Source of the DNA: Fidelibacterota bacterium
Lineage (GTDB): Bacteria > Fidelibacterota > Marinisomatia > Marinisomatales > S15-B10
Direction: 5' to 3'
Length of the DNA: 64,000 nt
Assembly (NCBI GenBank): GCA_046861655.1
Contig: JBHIAI010000001.1
Span: 32,001 to 96,000, forward strand
Shown here: piece by piece, positions 36,804 to 44,942 of the stretch
How positions within the stretch are numbered: the first letter of the stretch is position 1
How the letters are laid out: every line of letters starts with the position of its first letter
Position numbers and translations under genes: made by a program
The notes under the pieces: model-generated
Told to the model about the DNA's origin: nothing
The model's input: only the letters and a program-made list of their open reading frames with translations
Database searches by the model: none

Positions 36804-36962
36804 TCACGAAAAGGCTGTGTCCCTGCGTTCGGTTCTGTCTGTTTGTTTCTTCCGTTCCGGTTGGCTTCTTTTTGGCCTCTTTCTCTTGCTGCGCTCAAAC
36901 CGTTCCCGGATCTCCCGCCTCTTCTCATCGGTCAGCCAGTGCTCACCAGACGGTCCGCTCAT
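36804..36962 (-). CDS. Putative 52-aa highly basic small protein
   Basis: GAGGGG RBS; MSGPSGEHWLTDEKRREIRERFERSKRKRPKRSQPERKKQTDRTERRDTAFS. Confidence 0.45.
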   Translation of the reverse strand: MSGPSGEHWLTDEKRREIRERFERSKRKRPKRSQPERKKQTDRTERRDTAFS

Positions 36963-37137
36963 TCGGCAACCCCTCTTTCCTCAGCACCAGGCCGGCCGGT
37001 ACCGGGCGACAAAAGCGCCTCCTGGCGGAGCCCTTGTGAGCCCACGTCATCCGGCGCTGGGTTTCCAGATAAGAGGTTTGAACCGGTGGAAGTAACGTTT
37101 GGGTATAGGAGAAAGCCTGTGGAGTAGAGGGGAAAGG

Positions 37138-37325
37138 CCCGTATAAGACCAATCCCCCCTGAAGTTCTTGGGTGATTGCGCGAACAAGCACTCCAAGGCA
37201 TCCAAACGGACGCTTCAGGGGGGAATTCCTTCCCGCCCAAGCGGGTTCCAGTTTGGATGCCTGAAAGTGCCGGTCTTCTCATCATCGGGAATGCTCGTTC
37301 GCGCACCTGCAATTTAGTCTACGGG
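37138..37325 (-). ncRNA. Candidate structured RNA (~190 nt; family not recognised)
   Basis: 18-bp stem 37177-37194/37288-37305; perfect 12-bp stem 37196-37207/37251-37262; hairpin 37232-37245; closing stem 37138-37152/37314-37325; crossing 12-bp pairing 37153-37164/37213-37224. All three substitution mismatches are G-U pairs only on the minus strand. Confidence 0.7.
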
Positions 37326-37434
37326 TGTGTTCTTTTCAACATCTGGTCCGCTCACAAACAGTCTGGCTCACCCAGTCTGTGTCTGTCTGTGCTCGGATGA
37401 GCTCCTGGTCCTGTTTGTTCCATACAAAGTTCCA

Positions 37435-37520: not shown

Positions 37521-38228
37521 ATGAAGAGAGTAACGGAGGCAGTTAGGGAGCTTTTGAGAACGCCCGAAGCGAGGTCATGGAATCAGGATCTCCTGGCGAA
37601 AAGAATTGGGGTTAGAAGAAACACGTTGTGGCGGTGGAGGCTGGGAAAGGGAAAGCCCCATGAGGGCAACTTGATCAGCCTGGCAGAGGTATTCAAGAAA
37701 GACATCATTTGGAACGATCAGCATACGGAGATTGAGTTTGTTGAACGGACAGTAAGACAGGGAGAGGAGCTCCCCCCGTCCGTAGTGGATCGGTCACCGG
37801 GTGCCGCATGGGAGCGCCCCGATCTGGCGCCTCCGGGACTCCCCGTGGTAGCATGGGTAGCCGGGAGAGCTGAGGGTTTCTTCTCTGAAGATGGATATCC
37901 GGTGGGGAGGGGTGATGAGGAGGTCGCCAGACCCTACGATCTCGAGGATATGACGGCTTACGGCCTGAGAGTACCCGTAAAGAGGGGAGAGGCCCCGGAG
38001 CCCTTTCTGAGGCCGGGAGATAGGGTGATCTGTTCCCCGGCGGCGACCGTAAGGAACCGGGACATGGTGGTGGTCCGGATAAAAGATCAAGCCATTATCC
38101 TCAGGGAAATCCAGTTCGAAGGCGACAGGATTAGACTTGTCAGCTACAATCCGGAATATGAAGACCTGGAATTGGACAAAGATGAATTAAAGTGGGTTCA
38201 CAAGGTGGTCCATATCAAGAAGAAATGA
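37521..38228 (+). CDS. XRE-HTH plus S24 (CI/LexA-like) repressor with substituted catalytic residues
   Basis: HTH NQDLLAKRIGVRRNTLWRW..G..KP; LPVV..VAG; LRV..GEAPEP..PGD; LVSYNPEY. Confidence 0.88.
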   Translation: MKRVTEAVRELLRTPEARSWNQDLLAKRIGVRRNTLWRWRLGKGKPHEGNLISLAEVFKKDIIWNDQHTEIEFVERTVRQGEELPPSVVDRSPGAAWERPDLAPPGLPVVAWVAGRAEGFFSEDGYPVGRGDEEVARPYDLEDMTAYGLRVPVKRGEAPEPFLRPGDRVICSPAATVRNRDMVVVRIKDQAIILREIQFEGDRIRLVSYNPEYEDLELDKDELKWVHKVVHIKKK

Positions 38229-38616
38229 GGGGGGCGAAGGCCGTTTTCGGAGGCAGATTGTACGGTTGGTCGCCAGCCTGATTCCGGATAGGGTACCGGA
38301 AGCGCCTACCACGATTGCGAGAGTGAAGGAAACGAACCCTGCCAGATGAATCGGAGGGAGGGTGTTCCAGTCAGCAACTTTCCTGACCGACCAGAAGATC
38401 ACTGCCAGGCCAATGGCAGAAACCCCGAACTAGCGGAGGTTGAGGGTACCCGCCGCATCGGTTTCGGCTCCGAATGGGGACATGAAAACCGCAGGTGTGG
38501 TTTGGGCAGACAATACCGGTCTGTCCCGCGGCAGCGACGTACAGTCTTTTGTTGTTATGGTCGCGTTATAGGTGGCGTGCATACGAAAGGGTATGAAAGG
38601 GGAGTTTCTGGGGACT

Positions 38617-38826
38617 CTAGGATTCCTTCCGGGTAGACAGACCGAAAAGAGCGTACAGAGGGCAGAAGCTGACAATGCTGGTTACCAGGAACACTACAGC
38701 CAAAATACCCAGGATAATCGTCAGTAGTCCTGAAATGACCCCTGTGAAGTAAAGGGCCGCGACTAGGAGTACGAAGCCAAACCGGATTACGCGGTCAAGA
38801 GTCGACATATTCAGGTTCAATTTCAC
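38617..38826 (-). CDS. DUF2892/YgaP-like membrane protein
   Basis: NMSTLDRVIR...FCPLYALFGLST; AAGGAGG RBS. Confidence 0.9.
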   Translation of the reverse strand: MKLNLNMSTLDRVIRFGFVLLVAALYFTGVISGLLTIILGILAVVFLVTSIVSFCPLYALFGLSTRKES

Positions 38827-40162: not shown

Positions 40163-40600
40163 TTACTCGTCTGGCGAACGGTGGGCGGTGGCCTCCTCAT
40201 CGACCCAATCTTCTTCTTCCCACATCATACCCTTTCTGCCCGGCACTTTCCTGGTGGGTCCCGCCCTGTAGAATGAACACAATTTCGGTCCATAGCAAAA
40301 AGTCTCAAACCTATAGCGTCTTTGCTGAGGGTTCCACTGGTCAATGATCATGTCAACGGGCATACGACACCCCCAGACGCAGGCTTGACACTTCTTGGCA
40401 TAGGTCCTTGCATTCAGACGCTGGTGCCCTCGATGTCGGTAGGTAGGCAGATCGGGGGGAACACCATACCATGGAGGGGGATCAGGTGGTTCAGCGCTGG
40501 ATCGTTCTATGACGCTAAGCCGGATGCGGGGCTGAATTGAGGTGACTATGCCTTTCCAATCTACTTTCTCAGACATCACGTCATACAGATGGCGGTTCAT
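40163..40600 (-). CDS. Hypothetical Cys-rich protein, possibly N-terminally truncated
   Basis: C..C.WGC...FCYGP..C pattern and an acidic C-terminus (EEEDWVDEE). Confidence 0.6.
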   Translation of the reverse strand: MNRHLYDVMSEKVDWKGIVTSIQPRIRLSVIERSSAEPPDPPPWYGVPPDLPTYRHRGHQRLNARTYAKKCQACVWGCRMPVDMIIDQWNPQQRRYRFETFCYGPKLCSFYRAGPTRKVPGRKGMMWEEEDWVDEEATAHRSPDE

Positions 40601-40666
40601 GTTGAACGGGCTTGAACGTCTTCCGGCACGATGGTATGTCCACTGAGCCGGCCCACTTGTCGAAAC

Positions 40667-41485
40667 CTAGATATTCTCAAGTAATACCGAAGCCGAATAC
40701 GGAATGATTTCCCCTGTGTTTCTTTCTCTCCATATCTTCTCCGTGTGGGCCGCATTGTACACATGCCACTTCCCCGGGAATCGTTTGGCTATGGATCTCA
40801 GTATACCCATTTCTTTCTCTGAGAGAGGGTCGGCTGTGGTTTCGTCTGCTCTCATTATTTGACTCACTAACTCCCTGTAATTGTTGAGCTGAGGACCAAG
40901 CGGTAAAGCTGCATAGCTGCTTCCAGTCATGCTTCTGCCCAAATCCCTGAATGAGACCATGTCTGTGTACCATAGATACTTGGCTGTGAATAAGAATCTG
41001 TCATTTTCAACCAAAAGCCGCTTTTTCAGGATACTCTCGAGCTCCTTGATCACCAGTTTCAGCCGTGCCATTGAGAACTCTCTGTTTCCAGAGTATTCTG
41101 TTCCCAGGTCTTCACTCGTCAGTACGGTCCGAAGTGCCCTGTCCATGGAACGATTCTGAATTGAACTTCCTTCCCAGCGCTTGATGCTGGCGATTCCGAC
41201 TGAAATCCTTGTTGCGAGATCGCGTTGACTCAATGATCTCTGTTTTCTCAACTCTCTTATTTCATCTCCGGTAAGCAGCCCCACTTTCTTTCGATAGACA
41301 TTCGAAATGGTTTTTTGAATCGCGGTGGTTTGGTCTGTAGTACCTATCTCGATCCCACATCCGGGGCATTCGAAATACTCCGCCTCAATCGTAAAACTCT
41401 CGCCGCGGAACTCGATACTTTCGACCTTTGTGACCAAATTCATCTCACCGTGATCATTGGGGCAGAATTGATGTTGTTTTGTCAT
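40667..41485 (-). CDS. MqsA-like antitoxin (YgiT-type zinc finger, XRE HTH, DUF4065/Panacea-like domain)
   Basis: CP..H...ECPGCG, GLLT..EIRELR..SQRDLA..SIKRWE and KYLWY.D...TG..YAALP.GP motifs. Confidence 0.85.
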   Translation of the reverse strand: MTKQHQFCPNDHGEMNLVTKVESIEFRGESFTIEAEYFECPGCGIEIGTTDQTTAIQKTISNVYRKKVGLLTGDEIRELRKQRSLSQRDLATRISVGIASIKRWEGSSIQNRSMDRALRTVLTSEDLGTEYSGNREFSMARLKLVIKELESILKKRLLVENDRFLFTAKYLWYTDMVSFRDLGRSMTGSSYAALPLGPQLNNYRELVSQIMRADETTADPLSEKEMGILRSIAKRFPGKWHVYNAAHTEKIWRERNTGEIIPYSASVLLENI

Positions 41486-42051: not shown

Positions 42052-43296
42052 ATGATTGCCCATGTGGATATGGATTGTTTTTTCGTGGCCATCGAACGGT
42101 TCAAGGACCCCTCCCTGGTGGGGAAAGCCGTGGCCGTGGGGGGGGACCCTGAGAAAGGCCGGTCGGTGGTCACCTCGGCCTCGTACGAAGCCAGGCAGTA
42201 CGGCATCCATTCGGCCATGCCCATGGCCGTGGCCATCAGGCGGTGCCCACACCTTGTGGTGGTGCCGGTGGATTTTGAGCGGTATGACCGGGTCCACCTG
42301 GAGGTCAAGAAGGTCCTGGAATCGTTCTCTCCGGCTGTGGACATGACCTCCATCGATGAAGGGTACGTGGACTTGACCGGCACCGGTCGGCTGTGGGGAC
42401 CTCCCCTGAAGGCGGCAGAGCGTATCAAGTGGGCGGTACAGGAAGCCACGGGTCTCACCTGTACCGTGGGCCTTGCGAAGAACCGGCTGGTGGCCAAAAT
42501 CGCCTCGGGCTGGGCCAAGCCCGATGGACTTCTTCATATTCCACCCCAGCAGGTGGAAAAACTTCTGGCTCCCCTGCCGGTGGAGGCCATCCCCGGAGTG
42601 GGCGAGAAAATGGCCGCTACCTTGCGGTCCCTGGGCCTGGAGAGGGTGGGACAGATCCAGGCGGTGGATGAATCCCTCATGGACGCCACCTTCGGAGCCT
42701 TCGGCCGGAGCCTGTGGCGAGCCGCCCGGGGAGAAGATCCGTCATGGGGGAGAGATCCCGCCAGCCGCATCCCGTCCGGGCGGGACAGGGGTGCGGGACA
42801 CGGGACATCAAGGAAGTCCATCAGCAAAGAGATCACCTTCCCGGTGGATACCACCGACCGCAAGTACCTGGTCTCGGTTCTCCACTATCTTACGGAAAAA
42901 GTGTGCCGAAGCTTACGACAAAAAAGTAGGGCGGCCCGGACGGTGAACGTGAAACTGCGGTATGAAGATTTTGAAACCCGCCTTGCCTCGGCCACGTTTA
43001 ACGAACCGGAAAACAGGGACGAGGCAATCTTTTCATCGGCCTGGCGCTTGATGGAGAAGGCCATTACCCGGCGTGTGGGGATCCGCCTGGTGGGGGTTTC
43101 CCTGTCGAATCTCACCGGGTGTGTCCATCAAACCGACCTGTTTGAGGAAACCGGATGGGTGAAAGGGTGGCAAAGGCTACAGGCGGTGGACCTGACCCGG
43201 GAGCGGTTTGGGTTTAATGCCGTCCTTTCCGGGGAAGCCATCTATCTTCTTGCCTACCCGCCTGACAGGCTCTTCCGACACCGGGGTTCGGTGTGA
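42052..43296 (+). CDS. dinB: DNA polymerase IV (Y family)
   Basis: HVDMDCFF, SYEAR, SIDEGY, AKPDG and IRLVGV motifs; clamp-motif-like QTDLF. Confidence 0.95.
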   Translation: MIAHVDMDCFFVAIERFKDPSLVGKAVAVGGDPEKGRSVVTSASYEARQYGIHSAMPMAVAIRRCPHLVVVPVDFERYDRVHLEVKKVLESFSPAVDMTSIDEGYVDLTGTGRLWGPPLKAAERIKWAVQEATGLTCTVGLAKNRLVAKIASGWAKPDGLLHIPPQQVEKLLAPLPVEAIPGVGEKMAATLRSLGLERVGQIQAVDESLMDATFGAFGRSLWRAARGEDPSWGRDPASRIPSGRDRGAGHGTSRKSISKEITFPVDTTDRKYLVSVLHYLTEKVCRSLRQKSRAARTVNVKLRYEDFETRLASATFNEPENRDEAIFSSAWRLMEKAITRRVGIRLVGVSLSNLTGCVHQTDLFEETGWVKGWQRLQAVDLTRERFGFNAVLSGEAIYLLAYPPDRLFRHRGSV

Positions 43297-43416
43297 ATAG
43301 ATAAATGTCTTGATGAAAGTCCGTCTGGAAGGCATATTCCCGCCGTAGCGGGACAGGTTGTATGGGTGGACATCATATGTGCGATTGTATAAAGGAGACA
43401 AAAGGAGGGAAGTCAC

Positions 43417-43821
43417 ATGCAGCGAGGAAGCGTAAACCGGGTCTTTATCGTGGGGTATCTAGGGTCGGATCCTGAAAGCCGGTACACCGCTGCGGGAACC
43501 GCCACCACGACATTCCGGGTGGCCACCAATGAGTCCTGGCGAGACAGCGAGGGGGAGCTCCAGGAACATACCGAATGGCACCGCTGCGTGCTGTTTGGCA
43601 AAGCGGCCGAGATGGCGAAAGAATACCTGAAGAAAGGCCGTCTGGTGGCCCTGGAGGGGCGTCTGAGAACCCGCACCTGGGAAGATAAAGAGGGTGTCCA
43701 ACGGTCCACTACGGAAATCCGGGGGGATACCTTTACCATGCTCGGCCGGAGAGGGGATACGGCGGAAGAAGCACCCGAAGAAGAGTCGGAACCGGCCAGC
43801 GATGACGATCTTCCGTTTTAA
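43417..43821 (+). CDS. ssb: Single-stranded DNA-binding protein
   Basis: VNRV..VG.LG.DPE, TEWH, EG.L.TR.W and C-terminal DDDLPF. Confidence 0.97.
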   Translation: MQRGSVNRVFIVGYLGSDPESRYTAAGTATTTFRVATNESWRDSEGELQEHTEWHRCVLFGKAAEMAKEYLKKGRLVALEGRLRTRTWEDKEGVQRSTTEIRGDTFTMLGRRGDTAEEAPEEESEPASDDDLPF

Positions 43822-43927
43822 GGCGACCCTTTTTAGAACGCGGCCTTAGCGGGGTGACGAGTTTCAGGCATCCCCGCGGCGATTGCCAGGACCAGACAGA
43901 TCATTTTCAGCCGCAGGTTCTTTTGCA

Positions 43928-44042
43928 GCGCTTTTCTTCTGAAGAAAAGCGCGAGACATCTTTTTCATAGGGAGAACCGACACCCGCGTTTGTCTCGCCC
44001 AGTGACCTTCTCTTGTCGTCCTTCCTTTTCGAAAAGAAGGAC
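43928..44042. repeat. Two related T/A-tract palindromes
   Basis: GCGCTTTTCTTC-T-GAAGAAAAGCGC (43928-43952) and GTCCTT-C-CTTTTC-GAAAAG-AAGGAC (44018-44042). Confidence 0.7.
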
Positions 44043-44171
44043 CCCCGAAAAAGCACCGGGATCGTCAAACAGAAATCGATCTTATTCCTTGAGCTTCGCT
44101 GCGTCCAACCGAGTCTGGATCTTCCTGAGGCGACAAAAAAAAACAAAAAACCAACCTGATACATATCTGTT

Positions 44172-44942
44172 GTGCGCATCCGTCCCCTGTTCATCTGTAA
44201 GAGCCACTACACCTTCCTGGAAGGGATTCACGCCGTTTCCGACCTTGTGGAATTCGCCCGGGACCGGGGTATAACCCCGCTGTGCCTGGCAGACAAAAAC
44301 GGGCTGTACGGCGCCGTGGAATTCCTTACCGCCTGCCGGGACGCGGGGATTCACCCCATCCTGGGGACCGAACTGGTCCAGGGGCCCAGACAGGCAATCC
44401 TTCTGGCCAGGAATCACACAGGCTACGAGGAAATGTCGGAGTGGGTGACCCGACTGCACCTGGACGGACTTCGCATCGATAAGGACCTTGAGGTAGACTC
44501 CCCCAATCTTCTGGTTCTGTGCCGGGATCCGTTTCTCCTTCAGCGCTGGCTCAAACCGGGAAAAAACTCCCTGTTTCCAGCCCTGACTCTCACCAACCGG
44601 CAAGCCTGCCAGACGGTGCTGAACCTTCTCAGCCGGAGACCGTCCCGCCAGGGCGGGACCCGGATCCCCGCGGTGCCGGTGGTGGAGGTCAACCTTCTCT
44701 CCCCAAACGATACATCGCTGTACCGGATGGTCAGCGCCATCCGCCTGGACTGTACGGTCCAGACCCTGCCCACGGAAGACCTGTACCCATGGGAAGAAGC
44801 CCTGGAAAGGCTTTCCCCTGAGATCGAGACCGATACCCCTCCCTATGACCCCCTTCTGTCTGGAACAGACCTCGCCCACCGATGCCAGCTGGAGCTTGAC
44901 GTTAACAGCTATCATCTGCCAGCGTTCACACCAACAGAGTAG
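44172..44942 (+). CDS. Stand-alone PHP domain equivalent to the N-terminus of a DnaE2-type polymerase
   Basis: SHYTFLEG, LADKNGLYGAVEF, HPILGTEL and LLARN.TGY motifs; ends in the linker RCQLEL...YHLPAF followed by TAG. Confidence 0.85.
   Translation: MRIRPLFICKSHYTFLEGIHAVSDLVEFARDRGITPLCLADKNGLYGAVEFLTACRDAGIHPILGTELVQGPRQAILLARNHTGYEEMSEWVTRLHLDGLRIDKDLEVDSPNLLVLCRDPFLLQRWLKPGKNSLFPALTLTNRQACQTVLNLLSRRPSRQGGTRIPAVPVVEVNLLSPNDTSLYRMVSAIRLDCTVQTLPTEDLYPWEEALERLSPEIETDTPPYDPLLSGTDLAHRCQLELDVNSYHLPAFTPTE

Follow-up and report, generated by a model that had tools for sequence, protein, structure and literature searches.

The window, a stretch of 64,000 nt from a Fidelibacterota bacterium, carries on its minus strand a real structured RNA that is one member of a wider family without Rfam match. 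As read from the sequence, its fold is a rod (helix P1, a variable bulge and helix P2) with an internal loop at the tip, both strands of which pair with the RNA's own 3′ tail. We consider the family new and undescribed, and a new variant of leader-RNA control. With moderate confidence we interpret it as a cis-acting, default-off leader RNA (attenuator), which resides on a portable module of promoter plus RNA and sets the expression of the next gene.

The window RNA and its relatives

A sequence-only reading of the window had proposed an unrecognised structured RNA of ~190 nt, capable of forming a pseudoknot, at 37138..37325. On the minus strand this region has a minimum free energy of -92.5 kcal/mol (z = -6.3), equalled by 0 of 200 shuffles; the z value of the plus strand is -5.2. 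All pairings described in that reading were found again in the sequence. Among them are an 18-bp stem (37177-37194/37288-37305), with two G-U pairs that exist on the minus strand only, a perfect 12-bp stem (37196-37207/37251-37262), and a 12-nt complement (37213-37224/37153-37164), which forms the crossing helix B:B′ discussed below. The closing stem (37138-37152/37314-37325, with a third G-U pair) and the pairing of the bulge AAGACC with GGUCUU are likewise present, but neither is conserved in the family alignments, and the same holds for the proposed CCCGC/GCGGG apical hairpin. An ORF running from AUGAUG through the RNA was dropped as not conserved.

The sigma70-like promoter TTGACA-17-TAGATT, divergent from a repressor gene, was located as claimed at 37463-37435 on the minus strand, and a related genome (G003) has a similar TTGACA-17-TATATT. 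A second sigma70-like promoter, TTGAAA-17-TAAATT, lies at 37339-37311 on the same strand, immediately before P1, with a probable start near 37305. The 5′ arm of the closing stem thus consists of spacer and -10 box of this promoter, so that only transcripts started at the upstream promoter could fold into the stem, and the RNA is ~160 nt long (about 37305-37145). The claim of a novel, structured minus-strand RNA therefore stands with corrected boundaries and without its closing stem. Between the two promoters lies a 23-codon ORF (37346-37417, minus strand), possibly the remains of a cro-like gene; the corresponding region of G003 is longer by about 320 bases and has a 32-codon ORF that is unrelated.

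An equivalent promoter (TTG-N-17/18-TANNNT) stands just before P1 in 19 of 20 members and in all five members added later; the 20 members were anchored on the -10 box, so that independent evidence comes from the -35 TTG alone. In every one of the 25 members (20/20 and 5/5) the tail is followed by a U-rich tract (4-8 U per 10), which gives an RNA length of about 145-165 nt across the family. In the window copy this tract, the candidate termination point, is weak (37143..37152; 5 U in 10).

Searches with Rfam 15 returned 0 matches for the whole window at the gathering threshold, none over the RNA region at E <= 10 and, at E <= 1, none at the RNA of 10 member loci, the models of small self-cleaving ribozymes included; the RNA thus keeps its unrecognised status. 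Identity with 6S, SRP, RNase P or tmRNA was rejected, as no model matched and the corresponding genes of the window's genome (G000) lie elsewhere: a 6S candidate just under the cut-off (45.4 bits), a partial SRP RNA at a contig end, RNase P (270 bits) and tmRNA. In the portion of the literature reached by our search no description of the RNA was found, nor any mention in the accessible part of PMC11109978; the supplementary motif sets of published surveys lay outside this search and could hold it.

Copies were gathered by BLAST, three rounds of covariance models and a pattern scan of 185,579 species genomes, in which 14 of the 16 matches were real and two (L045, L046) were non-members. The family amounts to 25 full copies in 14 genomes, with up to six per genome (G364) and the window element as the single copy in G000. 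Occurrence is patchy: with the covariance model, 14 of 151 genomes of the class scored E <= 0.01, and two that did so (G016, G370) are non-members on inspection; in another class, 1 of 30 genomes scored. Carrier records are labelled Neomarinimicrobiota/Fidelibacterota or 'uncultured bacterium', apart from one bin labelled Planctomycetota. Its three copies may be mis-binned or transferred; 40 relatives of this bin yielded no member and one weak match (L141), which has neither promoter nor pocket. Pattern scans of viral contigs matched only non-members, as did a single metagenome scan with a pattern that was too strict at the 5′ end, and BLAST of phage and plasmid collections gave nothing relevant.

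Four further copies are broken. In G001, a genome of the same genus, a deletion (L006:480-560) fuses the start region of the repressor gene to the 3′ half of the RNA and removes both promoters and the pocket; it is either genuine or an assembly artefact. In L043 the 5′ end is replaced, in L064 the 3′ half is missing, 1.3 kb upstream of a full copy, and L095 has the 3′ half only, behind an apparent transposase end.

Rod, pocket and crossing helices

In the window copy (minus strand throughout) the 5′ strand of P1 (37288..37305) is followed by the one-sided bulge of ~25 nt (37263..37287), where the family varies most (mean identity 0.23), and by the 5′ strand of P2 (37251..37262). Above P2, GGA (37247..37249) pairs with UCC (37210-37208) to form P3, whose register differs among members. 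The apical pocket then consists of segment A (37234..37241) on its 5′ side, the cap hairpin P4 (GGAA-GGAA-UUCC, 37222..37233) and the C-rich segment B (37213..37224), which overlaps the 3′ strand of P4. The 3′ strands of P2 (37196..37207) and P1 (37177..37194) lead into the tail, made up of A′ (37167..37174) and the G-rich, Shine-Dalgarno-like B′ (37153..37164), directly followed by the U-rich tract. A′ pairs with A (37241-37234 with 37174-37167; one C.A mismatch in the window copy) and B′ with B; the A:A′ helix is absent from the sequence-only reading. Given the parallel order A..B..A′..B′, a single strand pairs both sides of the internal loop.

Covariation was evaluated in a 17-copy alignment built with MAFFT, blind to structure. 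Two-sided changes were found in 11 of 14 pairs of P1, 4 of 9 pairs of P2 and 6 of 8 pairs of A:A′; the scores of P1 and A:A′ were reached by 0 of 500 shuffles, and when all column pairs were scanned without bias, P1 came first and A:A′ second. B:B′ showed a two-sided change in 1 of 11 pairs, six being invariant. A tree-aware count gave strong support to P1 and P2 and no information on the nearly invariant B:B′. For A:A′ it was borderline, with 5.0 double changes on the same branch versus 2.3 (p about 0.05) and, when a conservative null was applied to the changes that keep pairing, p 0.17. We therefore take the divergent copies to settle the fold. In L065, L075, L104, L121, L124 and L125, B and B′ are altered together wholesale. 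All five copies outside model training, found only by the last covariance model, which contains no pseudoknot pairs, keep both helices (p <= 0.008 versus shuffled tails), and the swapped helix order is much weaker in them than A:A′/B:B′. Moreover, the cognate A:A′ and B:B′ duplexes of the 25 copies beat all 20,000 partner permutations, and the same result was obtained with 13 representatives of <60% identity; the duplex windows of this test were chosen by us, and the p-values are overstated, since the members are kin. The pseudoknot suspected from the single sequence is thus borne out for the family, and homologs covary, in P1, P2 and A:A′ within the 17-copy alignment and in B:B′ among the divergent copies.

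In the modelled stems of the minus strand, G-U pairs outnumber A-C oppositions by 43 to 13. The P4 cap (4-5 bp) has some two-sided changes, in a model-fitted alignment only. Two further hairpins were rejected: a long local A:B hairpin predicted by RNAalifold (two-sided change in 0 of 10 pairs) and an early hairpin between P1 and the bulge, spotted by eye, which exceeded controls in only 3 of 20 copies.

Genomic setting and downstream platform

The genes that follow the 25 copies belong to 14 unrelated families: PEGA-type lipoprotein, PLD-like nuclease, DUF1232, PDC-S30, CsgG-like, Fib_succ_major, Ig-like, weakly LPP20-like, and unannotated proteins including the 52-aa ORF of the window. The PEGA lipoprotein, downstream of some copies, is absent from the viral contigs searched. 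By a crude rule, signal-peptide-like starts occur in 13 of the 25 downstream ORFs (8 of 14 families), compared with 186 of 770 genome ORFs (24%). The RNA family resides mostly on integrative islands. According to Pfam and PADLOC, 15 of the 25 copies lie near genes for an integrase, recombinase, excisionase, RadC, DUF932 or defence (type I RM, Avs2, Nsn, TIR-caspase, PDC-M71, HigB, Fic); two more stand behind genes clearly related to RadC, outside the scanned proteins, a tRNA gene is found within three loci, and two copies in G028 have core-looking neighbours. In one island type (L115:4173-9851, L116:795-3131, L117, L104), a resolvase, a beta-clamp-like gene and RadC/JAB immediately precede the RNA, and the cargo behind it differs from copy to copy. 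Near-identical RNAs stand before different genes (L031 versus L050), indicating that promoter and RNA behave as a portable module.

In the window, the RNA's neighbour on the plus strand is a CI/LexA-like repressor gene (XRE-HTH plus S24 peptidase, 37521..38228). The earlier suggestion that the RNA occupies the place of a cro gene was not supported, given that among 31 related genomes this repressor turned up in three (G000, G001 and G003), where it adjoins the RNA, and that the RNA itself occurs in 14 genomes next to unrelated genes and behind its own promoter; the repressor is a local neighbour. Behind the repressor gene, ~400 nt (38230-38620) hold several hairpins and no convincing gene, have no Rfam match and are not conserved in G003. 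Farther along are a minus-strand gene with MqsA-like zinc-finger, HTH and Panacea (SocA-like) antitoxin domains (40163-41485), followed by a 145-aa ORF without Pfam match, and, ~4 kb from the S24 repressor, a cluster of DinB/IMS polymerase, ssb and a stand-alone PHP-domain ORF (42052-44942).

On the other side of the RNA, 23 of the 25 copies have a Shine-Dalgarno sequence plus ATG on the same strand within 150 nt, by a permissive test that in L052 took a short ORF preceding the actual gene. Many copies also contain, after the U-tract, a second complement of the tail, B″ (often B″A″). This tail:downstream pairing was better than shuffles at p <= 0.05 in 8 of 20 copies. When the tail was made unavailable in the computation, the predicted Shine-Dalgarno accessibility dropped by 0.21 on average (-0.004 with shuffled spacers), and the effect was above control in 17 of 18 copies, G003 and L030 having been left out as they are without called start. 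The held-out copies gave effects of 0.46, 0.53, 0.18, 0.11 and 0.00; L027, L038, L065, L075 and L104 showed none. Before any loop penalty, the computed energies favour the pseudoknot by 20 kcal/mol at the U-tract and by 14 in the long leader, as would be expected of a poised switch. With penalties of 10, 15 and 20 kcal/mol these crude energies favour it at the U-tract in 25, 22 and 16 of the 25 copies, respectively, and in the long leader in 19, 12 and 2; as the penalty value is not fixed, the ranking for the long leader flips.

The window copy is an atypical, weak example of this platform. Its B″ (37128..37135, minus strand) is short, the tail:downstream duplex is no better than shuffles (p 0.69), and the Shine-Dalgarno effect lies within controls (0.17 of them as large). 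The basic 52-aa ORF (36804..36962, minus strand; AGGGG Shine-Dalgarno at 36974-36970) starts 190 nt after the tail; in G003 the distance is 277 nt. It is rich in Arg and Lys and conserved in G001 and G003, has no Pfam match and no homologue in a database search, and its product could bind RNA. The earlier idea of a two-state switch thus holds at the level of the family, backed by the accessibility test, the held-out helices and the permutations, but its control over the 52-aa ORF is weak in the window copy.

Attenuator reading, alternatives and known systems

According to the attenuator reading, the transcript would fold into the P1-bulge-P2 rod, with the internal loop (A, B) at its tip capped by P4. 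As the tail emerges, first A′ and then B′ would be captured by the two pocket strands, yielding a three-way junction similar to the omega junction of H/ACA RNAs. The resulting B:B′ helix of 10-12 bp abuts the U-tract and would act as a terminator helix in place of a local hairpin, with most transcripts ending at ~160 nt. In transcripts that pass the U-tract before capture, the tail would pair with B″ and leave the Shine-Dalgarno sequence free (ON); later capture of the tail would release B″, which would then cover the Shine-Dalgarno sequence (OFF). Sequence comparison establishes the promoter motif, the rod, both crossing helices, the U-tract and the downstream same-strand ORF, and the masking of the Shine-Dalgarno sequence and the energies of the states come from computation; transcription, termination, the order of events and the trigger are what we infer within this reading. 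The RNA most likely switches the following gene on and off, in many cases a gene for a surface protein or for defence that belongs to a mobile island.

A helix formed with a non-adjacent strand can trigger intrinsic termination; in the part of the literature covered by our search, no description of intrinsic termination by such a helix was found. Topology may limit the formation of 8+12 bp on a closed loop as long as the polymerase retains the 3′ end. A pairing chain B > B′ > B″ > Shine-Dalgarno is consistent with the nearly invariant C-run and G-run. Since they are explained by this chain, and no aptamer-like unpaired core is apparent, the switch is most likely set by folding kinetics or by an RNA or protein occupying the pocket, and not by a metabolite. 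The searches made for an input (a second tail target, an antisense promoter, a bulge target) found none. A role of the bulge as a guide was rejected: it has a 17-nt perfect antisense match to an ORF of G000 contig C16, and 4% of random windows do equally well. The mRNA of this 87-aa ORF (L136:843-1103) therefore holds the complement within chance; in G003 three sites match the bulge guide with one mismatch.

An extended version of the attenuator reading strikes us as speculative and rather unlikely. It would hold that the H/ACA-like two-sided pocket, by capturing the RNA's own 3′ tail, makes both a terminator without hairpin and a threaded 3′ end that is proof against nucleases, and that the released short RNA, or the RNA of an incoming element acting on the pocket or the variable bulge, switches on defence and surface-protein cargo across several islands of one cell, as a new class of bacterial regulatory RNA.

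Likewise rather unlikely is a dual RNA resembling P4 CI or IsrK, of which a short terminated or trimmed form would act in trans, its free pocket capturing nascent tails of the same or sister islands, with autoregulation or cross-island immunity as the outcome and a burst of expression on entering a naive cell. In its favour are three segments complementary to one another, as in seqA/CI/seqC, and a predicted short form next to a read-through form, as in IsrK (both comparisons from the part of PMC4825925 available to us), together with up to six copies per genome with near-identical tails and the 15 copies near mobile-element or defence genes. Against this, the tail lies only 2-5 nt from P1, so that capture in cis should win; G000 contains no second exact tail, no antisense promoter is conserved (2/20, at different places), a common downstream gene such as kil, icd or ant is missing, and the two G028 copies have core-looking surroundings.

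We regard as improbable that the RNA is a stand-alone small RNA gene (protein decoy, dsRNA or DNA mimic, head-to-tail multimer), in which the tail in the pocket merely terminates and protects the 3′ end and downstream genes are expressed by incidental read-through. This would agree with the own promoter and U-tract of the members, with downstream genes of no common pathway, and with a rod (P1+P2, ~30 bp) whose structure is conserved beyond the need of a simple attenuator. The proximity of a same-strand ORF in 23 of the 25 copies argues against it, as does the computed anti-Shine-Dalgarno behaviour of B″ above shuffled controls in 17 of 18; nor does any protein gene accompany all copies.

The chances of an orphan riboswitch, sensing a signalling molecule or ion to control surface and defence genes, appear slim. 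Its position in a 5′ UTR, the pseudoknot and the computed alternative pairings of an expression platform would suit this, together with the enrichment of signal-peptide-like starts by the crude rule (13/25 versus 186/770). However, the invariant columns of the 17-copy alignment lie in or beside pairing segments, no conserved unpaired core of aptamer type is apparent, no Rfam riboswitch matched the window or the 10 member loci, and the 14 unrelated downstream families form no coherent gene set.

Very improbable, finally, is an element acting as DNA (MITE, attC-like site, retron msr-msd or decayed palindrome): the RNA's recurrence within single genomes, its mobile surroundings and the internal breakpoints of four broken copies recall one, and some P1 arms (GCTAAC/GTTAGC) presumably resemble attC ends, as we take the long closing stem to resemble retron a1/a2, but compensatory changes, the strand bias of G-U pairs (43 versus 13), a conserved promoter in fixed orientation to the next ORF, a non-conserved attC core and the single copy in G000 oppose it. 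Integron attC sites have conserved RYYYAAC/GTTRRRY ends and follow each cassette; here the P1 ends vary freely with covariation, and there is one full copy per locus, upstream of the gene. As to retrons, no RVT family was detected among 88 + 44 flank proteins (88 of 137 listed ORFs, and 44 from a second ORF listing). RVT_1 had no match in three of five carrier genomes, one of them a single contig, and lies away from the RNA in the other two; reverse transcriptase genes unlinked to the RNA were noted at L119 (G000 contig C80) and L120.

The family also has wider significance. It is supported by covariation and missing from Rfam, and should the B:B′ helix terminate transcription, it would show that in nature a long-range pseudoknot helix can take the place of the hairpin in intrinsic termination. 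As the promoter-RNA module precedes no fewer than 14 unrelated families of genes, most of them on integrative and defence islands, it may show how islands set the level or timing of new cargo. With a short RNA and a sigma70-like promoter, each step is open to tests in vitro or in E. coli.

To our knowledge, pairing of a tail with both strands of an internal loop is otherwise known only from H/ACA guides binding trans substrates. In the omega junction of H/ACA RNAs, one strand pairs both sides of the internal loop to give a three-way junction with the adjoining stem (PMC6800473, as far as its text was available), and by analogy the order A-A′/B-B′ would be geometrically equivalent to this guide-substrate arrangement. 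On pairing alone, the bipartite contact with both loop strands is found here too, yet the 'substrate' is the RNA's own tail, the junction sits on the proximal stem, each helix is longer, with 6-12 bp, and the host is bacterial; the alignments contain no conserved H or ACA box, and the partner is a tail in cis, not a substrate in trans. With 6S RNA the family shares the long rod, a similar size, a central bulge and an own promoter, but its bulge is one-sided, its tail forms a pseudoknot and it has no 6S score.

In pseudoknot riboswitches and attenuators, and in ColIb-P9 repZ, pairing between a loop and a downstream strand decides on termination or access to the ribosome-binding site. In repZ, translation is switched on by the pseudoknot, which an antisense RNA blocks. 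The pseudoknot of our family would be the off state and would also supply the terminator helix, and its crossing helices are two in number. The C4 RNA of P1/P7 has three complementary segments that control termination. In P4 immunity, according to the part of PMC4825925 available, a structured RNA on a mobile element likewise controls termination through three mutually complementary segments. Membership in this P4 CI/P1 C4 group, once considered for the window RNA, was not supported, as the Rfam models match neither fold nor sequence and no trans target was found, the tail having no second exact one in G000. The logic is similar: a small structured RNA on a mobile element, with three complementary segments (pocket, tail and B″, the last weak in the window) around a termination point at the U-tract. 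Those RNAs are processed and act in trans on flanking targets, whereas ours has an upstream pocket predicted to capture the adjacent tail in cis, a different fold and no common downstream gene. IsrK of Gifsy-1, a SeqA homolog, exists as a short terminated form and as a read-through mRNA whose ribosome-binding site is masked by alternative structures (PMC4825925, same part). A short form plus read-through with a masked ribosome-binding site is what we predict here; the two RNAs have no sequence or model match, and activation in trans by the short form, as demonstrated for IsrK, is hypothetical in ours. In the way it would work, the RNA is thus nearest to P4 seqA/CI/seqC, IsrK and pseudoknot switches such as repZ, and is a member of none of them.
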